Shown here in pieces: positions 20,319 to 24,373 of a stretch of 37,281 bases of DNA. Under the pieces are notes generated by a model. That model saw only the letters and a program-made list of their open reading frames with translations. It had not been told where the DNA came from and ran no database searches. The stretch spans positions 1 through 37,281 of the forward strand of contig DATIER010000026.1 of the NCBI GenBank assembly GCA_035455605.1, in the 5' to 3' direction. Numbering within the stretch: the stretch's first letter is position 1; the number at the start of each line of letters is the position of its first letter. The DNA is from Gaiellaceae bacterium. GTDB lineage: Bacteria > Actinomycetota > Thermoleophilia > Gaiellales > Gaiellaceae. The position numbers were made by a program, and so were the translations under genes.

Positions 20319-20651
20319 GTGGAGCGCGGCTGGCGGACGTACGGCAAGCGCTTCGCCGCTCCGGCGGCCTTCTTGCTCGCCGCGACCGTGGCCGTGCTGC
20401 TCGTTCGGTCCGGTCTCGAGGGCACGCGCGCCGCCGAGACGACGACCGTGCGCACGCGAACCGTCGTGAACACGCCCGCGGCGACGACGACCGCCGCGCG
20501 CAAGCGCAGGCGCTACTACCGGCTGAAGGCGGGCGAGACGCTCAGCGACGTCGCGATCAGGTTCCAGACGAGCGTCGAGCGGCTGCTCGCGCTCAACCCG
20601 GGGATCCAGCCGACCAACCTCACGGTGGGCGAGCGCGTCCGCGTGAAATAA
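20319..20651 (+). CDS. membrane-anchored LysM peptidoglycan-binding domain protein
   Basis: An N-terminal TM segment (AAPAAFLLAATVAVLLV) is followed by the C-terminal LysM YYRLKAGETLSDVAIRFQTSVERLLALNPGIQPTNLTVGERVRV. Confidence 0.85.
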   Translation: MERGWRTYGKRFAAPAAFLLAATVAVLLVRSGLEGTRAAETTTVRTRTVVNTPAATTTAARKRRRYYRLKAGETLSDVAIRFQTSVERLLALNPGIQPTNLTVGERVRVK

Positions 20652-20662
20652 CATCGCCCCGC

Positions 20663-21778
20663 TTGAAGGGCCTCATCGTCGCCGCCGCGGCCCTCGCGCT
20701 CGCGGCTCCCGTGCTCGCAGCGCCGCCGAAGGTGACGGCGCATGCCTTCGTGGTCGAGAACGGCGCGACGGGCGAGGTGCTCGCGTCGAGCAACGCGCAG
20801 GCGCGCGTCCCGATCGCGAGCATCACGAAGCTGATGACGGTGCTGCTGACGCTCGAGCGCACGAAGCCGTCCGACGTCGTCACCGTCGCCCGCGACGCGG
20901 CCGACGTCGGCGAGTCGACGGTGAACCTGCGCGCCGGCGAGCGCCTGACCGTGCACGACCTGCTCGAGGCGGCGCTCGTCCAGAGCGCGAACGACGCCGC
21001 CGACGCGCTCGCCGACTACGTCGGTCACGGCAGCGAGCAGCGCTTCGTCGCGCTGATGAACCAGCGCGCGCGCCAGCTCGGCCTGCGCCAGACGCACTAC
21101 GTCCGGCCCGACGGGCTCGACGCTCCCGGCCACGTCTCGAGCGCGCACGACGTGACGCTGCTCGCGCGGATGCTGATGCACCGGCCGCTGGTGCGGCAGA
21201 TCGTGCGGCAGCGCACCGCCTCGATCGCCGGCGGCCGGACGCTGCACACCTGGAACGACCTGCTCTCGAGCTACCCCGGCGTCTTCGGCGTCAAGACGGG
21301 CCACACCTCCGCAGCCGGCTGGTCGCAGGTCGCCGCGGCGCGGCGGGGGCCGCTGACGATCTACGCCACCCTGCTCGGCAGCCCCGACCGCTCCGAGCGG
21401 AACGCCGACCTGGCGAAGCTGCTCGACTGGGGCTTCTCGCGCTACGCGCCGGCGCAGGTCGCCGTGCAAGGGCGCGCCTACGGACGCGCCGAGCTCGGCT
21501 ACGGGCGGAAGCCGGTCGCGCTCGTCGCCGCAGCGTCGCTGCGGCCGTGGCTGCGGGTCGACTTCCCGGTCGTCCGCCACGTGGTCGCCGCGCGCACGGC
21601 GCGCCTGCCGGTGACGAAGGGCGAGCGCCTCGGCGAGGTGCGCGCCTACCAGCGCGGCCGCCTCGTCGGCACGGTCCCGCTCGTGGCCGAGCGCTCGGTC
21701 GCGCGGCCGGGGCTCGCCGGGCGCGTGCGGTGGTACGCGACGCGTACCCTGGAGCACGTGGGCGGGTGGTTCTCCTGA
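20663..21778 (+). CDS. D-alanyl-D-alanine carboxypeptidase (S11, PBP5/6-like)
   Basis: It has a signal peptide and the motifs SITK (SxxK), SAN (SxN) and KTGHT (KTG). A PBP5 C-terminal-like domain follows. TTG start at 20663. Confidence 0.88.
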
Positions 21779-21780
21779 TC

Positions 21781-22728
21781 GTGACCGTGACCATGAACGC
21801 GGCGATCGACCGCACGCTCACCGTCCCGAACTTCCAGCGCGGCCAGCGCCACCGCGCGAGCGCCGGGCTCACGCTCGCCGGCGGCAAGGGGATCAACATC
21901 GCGCGCGCGCTGAAGCGGCTCGGCGTGCCGGTCGTCGCGACCGGCCTCGCGGGCGGGCGCACCGGCACGCGCATCGTCGAGGAGCTGACCTCCGAGGCGA
22001 TCCTGAACGACTTCGTCCGCATCGACGACGAGTCGCGCACCTCGACCGCGATCGTCGACCCGACGGGCGGCAGCTACACCGAGGTGAACGAGTGGGGGCC
22101 GCACGTCTCGGGCGAGGAGCTGGAGATGCTGCTCGAGAAGCTGGTCTACCTCTCGCAGGGCGCCGACTACGTCGTCTTCGCCGGCTCGCTGCCGCGCGGG
22201 ATCGAGGACGACTTCTACGCCGAGGCCGTCCGCGAGCTGAACCGCCGCGGCGCACAGACGGTGCTCGACTCGGAAGGCGAGCCGCTCCGCCTCGGCGTCC
22301 AGGCCGAGCCGCTGCTCGTCTCGCCGAACGAGCGCGAGGCCGAGGCGCTCGTCGGGCAGGAATTCAACGACGACGACGACTTCCTGACGGGGCTCGAGAC
22401 GATCGCCGAGCTCGGCGCGCGCAACGTCCTGATCACGCGCGAGTCCGGCTGCTGGGCGCTGCTGCGCTCGGACCGGCACGCGAGCCGCTACCGCGCCGAG
22501 GCGCCGCGCGTCGAGCCCGTCTCCGCCGTCGGCTCGGGCGACGTGCTGCTCGCGGCCTTCGTCGCCGCCCGCCTCGACGGCCGCTCCGACGAGGAGGCGC
22601 TGCGGGCGGCCGTGGCCGCCGGCGCGGCGTCGACGTTCGAGATTGGCGCGGGCCGCTTCGAGCCGCGGGAGGCCGGGCGCCTCGTCGGCTCGATCGAGGT
22701 CTCGCAACTCGAGCCCGTCGCGGACTAA
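21781..22728 (+). CDS. PfkB-family sugar-phosphate kinase (1-phosphofructokinase / tagatose-6-phosphate kinase-like)
   Basis: It contains (V)[36 protein letters not shown] and [14 protein letters not shown]. The start is either GTG at 21781 or ATG at 21793. Confidence 0.85.
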
Positions 22729-22763
22729 AGGGCTTTCCGGGACGCGCCGATATCTGGCTGGCG

Positions 22764-24257
22764 ATGAATCGCCAGCGCCTGCCCGTGGTGCTGTCTGCGG
22801 CGGCTCTTCTGATCGCCCTGCTCAGCGCCACCCCGAACGGGGTCGCCGCGCTCACCGGCGGCGCCGCCCGCGTCGCCCTGTTCGCGAAGAACGCGGCCAA
22901 GGTCGGCGGCATCGCGGCCTCGAAGAAGCCCAGGGCCGGCAAGCTGCTCCCGCTGGGCAAGAACGGCAAGTTTCCGGCGTCGGTGATCCCGCGCGGCGGC
23001 GCGGCCGGACCGGCCGGCCCCGAGGGCGCGCGCGGCCCCGCCGGCCCGATCGGGCCGCAGGGCCAGCAGGGCATCCCCGGCCAGAAGGGCGCCAGGGGCG
23101 CCACCGGCCCAGCCGGGCCGCAGGGCGCGACCGGCCCGCAAGGCTCCGTCGGGCCCCCCGGCGGCTTCGGGCTCCTGAACCTCGCCCGCGCGAACGTCGT
23201 CAGCCGCGCCCTCGCTGCCAACGGCGCCCATTCGTCCGTCGTCGCCGGCGCGGACGGCCTCCCGCTCGTCGCCGTCTTCGCCTCCGGCCCCGACGACCTG
23301 CAGGCGGTGCACTGCGCCGACGCCACGTGCGCCTCGGCGACCACCACGACCCTGGACTCGAGCGGCAACGTCGGCGACTTCCCCTCGGCGACGGTCGGCG
23401 CCGACGGGCTCGGCGTGATCTCGTACGTCGATCTCACGAACGGCACGCTGAAGGTCGCGCACTGCACGAGCCTCGCGTGCACCGCCGCCGGCCTGACCAC
23501 GCCGGACGCCTCGGGCAACGTCGGCGCGCAGACCTCGATCACGGTCGGCACCGACGGCCTGCCGCTGATCAGCTACTACGACGCCGCGAACAAGAACCTC
23601 GTCGTCGCCCACTGCTCGACCCTCGCGTGCTCGAGCGCGACGCCCACGGCGATCGACAGCACCGGTGACGTCGGGCAGGACTCGTCGATCGCGATCGGCG
23701 CCGACGGGCTCGGCCTCGTCAGCTACCGCGACGCGACGAACGGGCACCTCAAGGTCGCGCACTGCGCCGACGTGGCGTGCAGCTCCGCGACCGCGACGAC
23801 GCTCGACTCCGGCACGAGCGTCGGCGGCTCCACCTCTGTCACCGTCGGCGCCGACGGCCGCGGCCTGGTGGGCTACTTCGACAACGGCAACGCGAACCTG
23901 AAGGTCGCCCACTGCTCGGACGTCGCGTGCAGCGCGGCCATGGCCGCGACGGTCGACTCCGCGAGCCTCGTCGGGGAGTACGCGTCGATCTCCGTCGGGA
24001 TCGACGGCCTCGGCGTCGTCTCCTACTGGGACCACTCCGCCGCGCGGAACCTGAAGGTCGCGCACTGCGTCGACGTCGCGTGCTCGGCGGCGACGACGGC
24101 GGTGGTCGACAGCCCCAACGACGTCGGCTCGTTCAGCTCGCTCGCGATCGGCGCCGACGGCCTGCCGCTCGTCACCTACCGCGACGTGACGAGCAACGAC
24201 GTCCGGGTCGCGCACTGCCCGAACGCCTTCTGCGTCGGGTACCTCCGGCGACGCTGA
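22764..24257 (+). CDS. membrane-anchored/secreted collagen-like protein with a C-terminal array of seven 50-aa Cys-pair repeats (predicted beta-propeller)
   Basis: The N-terminal hydrophobic anchor is [17 protein letters not shown]. It is followed by [17 protein letters not shown] and 18 uninterrupted G-X-Y triplets (aa 79-132). Then come 7 repeats of the type DSxGxVGxxxSxxVGADGLxLxSYxDxxNxxLKVAHCxxxxC. Confidence 0.85.
22998..23162 (+). repeat. collagen-like G-X-Y triplet repeat (coding)
   Basis: The stretch reads [55 protein letters not shown]. Gly occurs at every third residue without interruption. Confidence 0.9.
23211..24254 (+). repeat. seven tandem repeats of about 150 nt (50 aa), coding
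   Basis: The H-C dipeptides fall at aa 183/184, 233/234, 283/284, 333/334, 383/384, 434/435 and 484/485. The period is 50,50,50,50,51,50. Each is followed by a second Cys at exactly C-x4-C. Confidence 0.85.
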
Positions 24258-24320
24258 GCCGTCTGGGGACGGTGCTACGATCGCCGTCCACTTGAGAGAC
24301 GGCAAGAGACAGGTTTCCTC

Positions 24321-24350
24321 GGCCCAGGCGATCCCAGCGCCTGGGCCTTT
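24321..24350 (+). terminator. intrinsic terminator (hairpin plus short T-tract)
   Basis: GGCCCAGGCG-ATCCCAG-CGCCTGGGCC is a perfect 10-bp stem. It is followed by TTTGT. It lies 64 nt after the collagen-like gene's stop and 24 nt before the guaB3 start. Confidence 0.65.
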
Positions 24351-24373
24351 GTGCATCAAGGGGAGGTAGCGGG

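Follow-up and report, generated by a model that had tools for sequence, protein, structure and literature searches.

The subject of this work is a single gene of a soil actinobacterium of the family Gaiellaceae, a complete coding sequence of 497 codons and a TGA stop at 22764..24257 on the plus strand of contig DATIER010000026.1, positions 1 to 37,281 of which (the window) were analysed as a whole. We judge the chances to be about even that its product is an exported, trimeric, collagen-stalked protein with three disulfide-stapled seven-bladed heads, and that these heads bind, multivalently, a repetitive ligand which is most plausibly a glycan. From the N-terminus, the predicted chain consists of a hydrophobic segment, a basic neck, a run of collagen-like triplets, seven repeat units with a pair of cysteines in each, and a short tail that ends in three arginines. 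In the following, the head is described first, because the proposed binding function depends on it, and then the N-terminal half of the molecule.

The head, or propeller domain, comprises amino acids (aa) 139-490 (23178..24233, plus strand) and was delimited with AlphaFold2, Foldseek and a blade hidden Markov model (HMM). It is composed of seven tandem units on the plus strand, which lie at 23181-23330 (unit 1, aa 140-189), 23331-23480 (unit 2), 23481-23630 (unit 3), 23631-23780 (unit 4), 23781-23930 (unit 5), 23931-24083 (unit 6) and 24084-24233 (unit 7). Every unit closes with H-C-x4-C, and the HC pairs are found at aa 183, 233, 283, 333, 383, 434 and 484. With these as anchors, the seven repeats described in an initial annotation of this DNA were recovered with the same periods of 50, 50, 50, 50, 51 and 50 aa; the consensus that it had given for all of them, however, does not extend to unit 1, which is degenerate and has neither the DSxGxVG nor the SYxD motif. 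The protein contains 14 cysteines in total, all of which belong to the C-x4-C pairs, one pair per repeat at the positions already reported. The HMM built from the seven units detected 7 units in the protein and 0 in the rest of the window when this was translated in six frames. From 2,212 repeat instances, the unit consensus [ST][SA]AT.TT[VL]D S.G.VG.[YF][TS]S[ILV][TA][ILV]G.DG[L][PG][LV]ISY.D.TN.DLKVAHC.[ND]..C was obtained. Both cysteines are present in 2065 of the 2065 complete repeats and represent the most conserved positions, while the histidine before the first cysteine is retained in 72% of repeats and is replaced by lysine or arginine in about 15%. Because the cysteines are invariant while the neighbouring histidine varies, the repeat alignment favours a structural disulfide rather than a His-Cys-Cys metal site. 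Such a C-x4-C disulfide would form a six-residue ring stapling the loop between two strands.

AlphaFold2 was run on aa 130-497 with a 79-sequence alignment, and the resulting head model had a mean predicted local distance difference test score (pLDDT) of 94.5, a predicted template modelling score of 0.92 and 28 strands in a strict 7x4 pattern. The same domain was reproduced in the full-length AlphaFold2 run. When the model was compared with the PDB by Foldseek, the top 22 ranks were all occupied by the seven-bladed lectins PLL, PHL and PLL2-5 of Photorhabdus, which are thus the best full-length matches of the repeat region, with template modelling (TM) scores of 0.66-0.79, E-values of 3e-15 to 3e-12, sequence identity of 14-18% and alignments of 332-362 columns against about 340 residues. 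The best of them aligned along their entire length, in 335-347 columns, with TM scores of 0.70-0.79 and E-values of about 1e-14. A second tier of matches consisted of GH145 enzymes (BT3686 and relatives), sialidases and rhamnose-glucuronate lyase at E-values of 1e-11 to 1e-8; their TM scores were 0.5-0.68, and many of them are six-bladed. Structural matches in BFVD were mostly uncharacterised phage proteins. Independently of the model, a closed seven-fold unit is indicated by the repeat counts of the family, which cluster at seven. Exactly seven H-C-x4-C motifs occur in 99 of 120 close relatives, the blade HMM found seven units in 196 of 262 proteins, and 34 of the other 66, giant proteins included, have 13-14, 20-21 or 27 units. 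The head is therefore a confidently predicted seven-bladed beta-propeller, as had been proposed from the repeats, and the 7x4 strands, the lectin folds and the sevenfold counts all agree with this model-based assignment.

The collagen-like G-X-Y run at aa 79-138 (22998..23177, plus strand) was defined by triplet count and Pfam. It contains 18 clean triplets at aa 79-132, the same uninterrupted series that had been counted before, or 20 up to aa 138 when GGF and GLL are included, and proline occupies the X position in 9 of the 18. The segment is a genuine collagen sequence, since aa 79-138 pass the threshold of the Pfam Collagen family (PF01391) with 32.4 bits against a cut-off of 27.2 (E 7.9e-8). 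Orthologues have 15-20 triplets and differ by whole-triplet insertions or deletions. If a triple helix is formed, its 54-60 residues at 0.286 nm per residue would span approximately 15-17 nm.

Upstream of the stalk, sequence, predicted helix and conservation identify aa 1-29 (22764..22850, plus strand) as a signal peptide or signal anchor, in which the basic n-region MNRQR precedes an h-region of 17 aa and the c-region is TPNGVAA. This agrees with the membrane anchor or signal that had been noticed at the N-terminus, where MNRQR and the 17-residue hydrophobic stretch make up aa 1-22, and the full-length AlphaFold2 model places a helix at aa 3-21. An N-terminal alignment of 46 orthologues confirms the start codon; in it, A29 never varies, and conservation is at least 90% at A28 and G26. 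The (near-)invariant Ala-Ala 28-29 after a c-region that contains Pro and Gly suggests cleavage by signal peptidase I after A29, although the segment may also be retained as an uncleaved anchor. The strongly hydrophobic h-region argues for a Sec rather than a Tat export signal. Many orthologues carry Arg-Arg in the n-region (MDRRHLP, MIRRALP, MVRRTLP), where the protein of the window has RQR.

The signal is followed by a basic neck (aa 30-78, 22851..22997, plus strand), which was recognised by charge count and homology searches. Its 49 aa include 10 K/R and zero D/E, and 8 orthologues keep the bias, with +8 to +12 basic residues and none that is acidic. Only the Gaiellaceae orthologue group has this neck, as a homology search returned just fragments of the same gene. 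Since the charged residues of the neck are all basic while the propeller has an isoelectric point of 4.4, we suggest that the neck attaches electrostatically to the anionic envelope and that the acidic heads lie distally. A segment to which the initial annotation had drawn attention was located in the translation at aa 60-76, as 17 residues inside the neck. Its interpretation as a phage tail-fibre motif was dropped, because it had no support in PHROGs or in the phage tblastn search. The neck alone has no PHROG match, and tblastn of aa 32-78 against 50,697 phage records gave no match. At the other end of the protein, the C-terminal tail VGYLRRR (aa 491-497, 24234..24254, plus strand) was delimited by homologue tails and orthologue conservation. 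The form ...FC[VI][PG]Y[FL]RRR-COOH is common to relatives from Gaiellaceae, Anaerolineales and Dehalococcoidia, RRR is the C-terminus of about 75 of 120 relatives, and R495-R497 are at least 90% conserved in orthologues. The tail fits no known sorting signal, and it is not followed by a transmembrane segment.

We hypothesize that the N-terminal hydrophobic segment would direct the chain to the Sec pathway and would then be cleaved after Ala29 or kept as an anchor, while the 49-residue basic neck would tether the base of the protein to the anionic cell envelope. Three chains would wind their 18-20 G-X-Y triplets into a triple helix of about 15 nm, and each chain would carry one seven-bladed propeller, in which the Cys-x4-Cys disulfide would staple a hairpin loop in every blade. 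Because the blades share one motif (D, G-x-V-G, S, G-x-D-G, S-Y-x-D, N), the trimer would offer up to 21 near-equivalent sites. The likeliest activity would then be to bind a repetitive ligand with low affinity but high avidity, in the way of propeller lectins and of collagen-stalked lectins such as collectins. The ligand, most plausibly a polysaccharide, could come from the cell's own envelope or from the surroundings. We infer export, surface display, three-chain trimerisation of the stalk, the disulfides, the polarity of the molecule and the class of ligand, and a lectin function is proposed on resemblance of the predicted fold alone. An extracytoplasmic setting is backed by the hydrophobic helix, by the extracellular domains that occur in relatives, and by the location of one relative (P0014) in an envelope-glycan cluster, both of which are described below. 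In collectins, ficolins and C1q, a collagen triple helix likewise presents three binding heads and provides avidity for repetitive surfaces. The analogy is functional only: their heads are different (C-type lectin, fibrinogen-like and C1q, respectively) and there is no homology.

Lectins of the PLL family bind sugars multivalently between the blades, at polar and hydrophobic sites that contain tryptophan, and a flexible N-terminus but no stalk is mentioned in their description (PMC6943638). Like the protein studied here, the Photorhabdus PLL family (8Q83, 6RG2, 5MXG, 5C9L) is seven-bladed, about 340 residues long and built from similar four-stranded repeats of about 50 aa. The protein is nevertheless not a member of that family, as sequence homology and the Trp-based sites are both absent. 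Whereas PLL sites use CH-pi stacking on tryptophan, the conserved aromatic residue here is the tyrosine of S-Y-x-D, and whereas the cysteines of PLL bridge subunits, here there is one C-x4-C in each blade. To our knowledge, PLL proteins have neither a signal peptide nor a collagen stalk.

With respect to the stalk, the closest comparison is with BclA of Bacillus anthracis, Scl1/Scl2 of Streptococcus and Lcl of Legionella, which share an N-terminus for export or attachment, a globular head and an uninterrupted G-X-Y stalk that lacks hydroxyproline. The collagen part matches such bacterial collagen-like surface proteins weakly, and the equivalogs for Scl1/Scl2 (NF038329, NF038330) and Lcl (NF046116) reached 28.9-35.7 bits against cut-offs of 325-500, over the collagen part only. 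The head, however, is a predicted beta-propeller and not the C1q/TNF-like jelly roll of BclA or the helical V domain of Scl, and in contrast to Scl1/Scl2 the protein has no LPXTG and ends in ...CVGYLRRR. Furthermore, a 2026 catalogue reported that fibres of extracellular contractile injection systems (eCIS) join propeller lectins to collagen shafts (PMC12923769). The eCIS fibres thus share a collagen shaft and a propeller lectin-like domain with our protein, a likeness at the level of the modules described. They are encoded in contractile-injection-system loci and have a TNFR-like C-terminal domain, whereas the gene studied here lies in a housekeeping locus and its product ends with the propeller. 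The architecture is accordingly less unprecedented than the initial annotation had implied: the combination of collagen with a propeller lectin has a precedent, while none of the libraries searched contains the repeat family itself.

This family is large. A phmmer search of the domain against 1.84 billion cluster representatives (clusters of 50% identity) returned 11,656 proteins at E 1e-3, 7,436 at E 1e-10 and 2,821 at E 1e-30. Among GTDB species representatives, 275 loci with the repeat were found in Gaiellaceae, Nitrospira/Nitrospiraceae, Anaerolineales, Dehalococcoidia/SAR202, Thermoanaerobaculia and a Thermoplasmata archaeon, so that the family extends over Actinomycetota, Nitrospirota, Chloroflexota and Acidobacteriota as well as the archaeal Thermoplasmata. 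As supposed from the sequence at first sight, the repeat belongs to no family described in Pfam-A, NCBIfam, PHROGs or the sequences of the PDB. Pfam-A (2025 copy) gave no near-threshold match in aa 139-497 at E up to 10, where the sole traces, DUF4911 and DUF1936, were far below their cut-offs. None of its curated propeller repeats (WD40, Kelch, NHL, FG-GAP/VCBS, PQQ, BNR/Asp-box, PD40, YVTN, LVIVD, SBBP etc.) matched, and in 8 relatives the repeat was likewise without a Pfam-A family match. NCBIfam 20.0 recognised only the collagen part of the protein, PHROGs had no match on the propeller, and phmmer and the profile of the 79-sequence family against all PDB sequences returned collagens or nothing at E up to 10. 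Members are named in databases as 'hypothetical', as 'collagen-like protein' or by plainly spurious names. In the literature, no description was found of the repeat, of collagen-like proteins of Gaiella or of propellers with a disulfide in each blade.

The seven blades of relatives are also found behind other N-termini, namely a signal peptide alone, a non-collagen region of about 200 aa (FTYQG... type) or a shorter collagen. The non-collagen relatives start with a hydrophobic N-terminal segment, which in several of them is followed by AQA-type motifs. Large relatives join the repeat with PKD, DUF11, CBM_4_9 and Laminin_G_3, which are typical extracellular modules, and the giant ones reach 7,237 aa. 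Some relatives, with 10-12 units, depart from the multiples of seven. Within Gaiellaceae, the blades are positionally orthologous, with 64% identity on the diagonal compared with 46% off it. Across phyla (P0014, P0021, P0025 and P0054), there is no correspondence of blades, and the identity between blades within one protein is 60-72%. The absence of this correspondence together with the high identity within proteins suggests that blades were repeatedly homogenised or re-amplified, while the count of seven and the RRR tail were retained. It is possible, although we put it forward only tentatively, that the H-C-x4-C blade of about 50 aa defines a large undescribed family of disulfide-stapled seven-bladed propellers and a new class of prokaryotic multivalent lectin or adhesin heads, borne on interchangeable scaffolds of collagen, other N-termini or giant PKD/CBM proteins.

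The contexts of five non-orthologous relatives showed no recurrent functional neighbour, save for one envelope-glycan cluster. The relative P0014 (L006/L007, 2829-15476) is located inside this envelope-polysaccharide cluster, together with genes for GT2, UDP-GlcNAc 2-epimerase, Bac_transf, Wzy_C/TPR, PMT_2-like and DUF2079 proteins. An unannotated gene of 477 aa lies directly upstream of P0014. In Chloroflexota, the stalk-plus-propeller genes adjoin large genes without a Pfam match, which are possible paralogues, and beside them are small open reading frames (ORFs) of 98-113 aa, also without a Pfam match (L004/L005 7544-7885 and 9794-10093; L089 3818-4114). Such a small ORF may encode a dedicated partner or chaperone.

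Orthologues of the gene, with 58-94% identity, keep the signal, neck, collagen, seven blades and RRR tail, and those that carry a taxon name are all from Gaiellaceae. The ratio of non-synonymous to synonymous substitution rates (dN/dS) was approximately 0.15 against two close orthologues. Since orthologues retain all of the architecture at such a dN/dS, it is not a product of chance. The gene order is pyrF - LysM - Peptidase_S11 - PfkB - target - IMPDH-like - guaA - PLD (minus strand) - UDG - rplM - rpsI - glmM - glmS, and it is identical on megabase contigs at the orthologue loci with 69% and 65% identity. In the window, Pfam confirmed the immediate neighbours: pyrF, LysM, Peptidase_S11 and PfkB upstream, and IMPDH, GuaA and PLD downstream. 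The GC content of the gene equals that of its flanks. On comparison of these sequences, the gene is a vertically inherited, single-copy core gene under purifying selection, and synteny, GC content and dN/dS rule out its insertion as part of an island or a prophage. The gene had been described as wedged between housekeeping genes; these neighbours are correct, but the position is conserved in Gaiellaceae and is that of a resident gene. In addition, tblastn of blades 2-7 and the tail (aa 190-497) gave no match in 50,697 phage records or 72,556 plasmids.

Several points weigh against a multivalent glycan binder and have to be set beside the evidence above. No link to lectins was found at the level of sequence, the PDB profile search being empty, and the tryptophans of the PLL sugar sites are missing, with a single Trp in the whole propeller. 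No trimerisation domain and no recognised cell-wall anchor, neither LPXTG nor a lipobox, were found in the protein. In the full-length monomer model, aa 24-141 have a pLDDT below 50, as expected for a single collagen chain. The context of nucleotide-metabolism and cell-wall housekeeping genes offers no clue to a ligand. Moreover, the sevenfold conservation of the motif could be purely structural. It is in this direction that a rather unlikely alternative lies, in which the protein is a structural component of the envelope (a surface fibril, spacer or sheath element), that is, a propeller block hardened by disulfides that has no specific ligand and in which the motif reflects a folding constraint. 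Such a role would suit a single-copy core gene of conserved synteny that is under purifying selection and adjoins genes for LysM and a D-Ala-D-Ala carboxypeptidase, with glmM and glmS at a greater distance downstream in the syntenic orthologue loci. Conserved Gly and Asp at turns and hydrophobic residues in strands are typical structural motifs, and the giant relatives resemble surface-layer or adhesin scaffolds. On the other hand, the conserved residues D9, S19, Y32, D34 and N37 of the unit exceed what turns need, the nearest folds are lectins and not structural proteins, and in relatives the repeat is found together with carbohydrate-binding modules.

The second tier of Foldseek matches could also be taken to indicate a stalked propeller enzyme at the cell surface, for example a glycoside hydrolase or a lyase like GH145 or the sialidases. 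We consider this quite improbable in view of the lower TM scores, the many six-bladed matches, the complete lack of Pfam or NCBIfam enzyme matches at E up to 10, and the presence of the same motif in all seven blades, so that no blade is evident as a unique active site. Very improbable, too, is a multivalent metal-binding or thiol-redox surface protein in which each H-C-x4-C is a metal or redox site. The invariant cysteine pair and the histidine that precedes it in 72% of the 2,212 repeats would be in accord with such sites, but Lys or Arg takes the place of His in about 15% while the cysteines never vary. In addition, three ligands with one set per blade form no standard site, and the predicted extracytoplasmic location favours oxidised cysteines. 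The C-x4-C ring is a known disulfide geometry, that of the oxytocin-type ring, which also counts against metal or redox sites. Finally, the collagen part has matches among tail-fibre PHROGs (phrog_5073, E 2.5e-17), phage proteins are among the BFVD matches, and eCIS fibres combine a collagen shaft with a propeller lectin (PMC12923769), all of which would be compatible with a receptor-binding protein of a phage or eCIS tail fibre, possibly recently domesticated. The likelihood of this origin is nevertheless very slight: the PHROG matches are limited to aa 63-136, in essence the collagen run, and none falls on the propeller and neck, the tblastn searches of the neck and of blades 2-7 with the tail were empty in phages, and the gene has the GC content of its flanks and stands among housekeeping neighbours whose order is conserved across Gaiellaceae.

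If the protein is indeed an exported stalked binder, it would open a way to the function of an extracytoplasmic domain that is very abundant but unannotated. The carriers of this domain, Gaiellaceae, Nitrospira, Anaerolineae and SAR202, dominate soils, sediments and nitrifying systems; few of them are cultured and their surface biology is almost unknown. A highly symmetric seven-bladed propeller stapled by disulfides would be of interest for lectin discovery and protein design, and for purposes of annotation the repeat family merits its own profile model.

On the same strand directly upstream of the gene, 20319-22728 encodes a small LysM protein, a D-Ala-D-Ala carboxypeptidase (Peptidase_S11) and a kinase of the PfkB family. 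The stop codon of the pfkB-family gene is separated from the start of the target gene by 35 nt, in which no obvious Shine-Dalgarno sequence was seen, and co-transcription of the target with the upstream cell-wall genes is possible. Downstream, a spacer of 116 nt (24258-24373) precedes the IMPDH-like gene. In an alignment of 19 Gaiellaceae intergenic regions it is highly conserved with long invariant blocks, as judged within the spacer alignment. One conserved block, CGGTGCTACGATCGCCGTCCACTTGAGAGACGGC, is located at 24270..24303 (plus strand) and includes TACGAT at 24276-24281, which resembles a -10 element. The motif CCGTCCA occurs twice in most of the aligned spacers, and its first copy in the window reads CCGTCTG. 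The block is probably a promoter or leader of the downstream IMPDH-like/guaA genes and not a part of the target gene. Fold and alignment further revealed a GC-rich hairpin, GGCCCAGGCG / CGCCTGGGCC, at 24321..24353 (plus strand), with a 10-bp GC stem at 24321-24347. In 17 of the 19 aligned loci, the stem does not vary whereas the loop does. Two orthologues keep the block without the hairpin. The RNA fold of the spacer is better than that of shuffled controls (z = -3.0). A strong terminator of its own had been ascribed to the target gene, but on these data it is weak: the stem is followed by TTTGTG only and fails the T-tract rule, a scan for terminator and promoter consensus around the gene returned nothing, and the hairpin lies 3' of the conserved promoter-like block. 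After the stem and the short T-run, a Shine-Dalgarno sequence, AAGGGGAGG, stands ahead of the IMPDH-like gene. Thus, the hairpin may be an attenuator or leader of the IMPDH-like/guaA genes as much as a terminator of the target, and the spacer as a whole may serve the guaB-like/guaA genes as a promoter plus attenuator. Over the entire window, Rfam and tRNA scans gave no match. A minus-strand ORF of 544 aa at 22725-24359, and other long ORFs that overlap the gene on the opposite strand and in other frames, are the usual artefacts of the GC content of about 73% and not genes.

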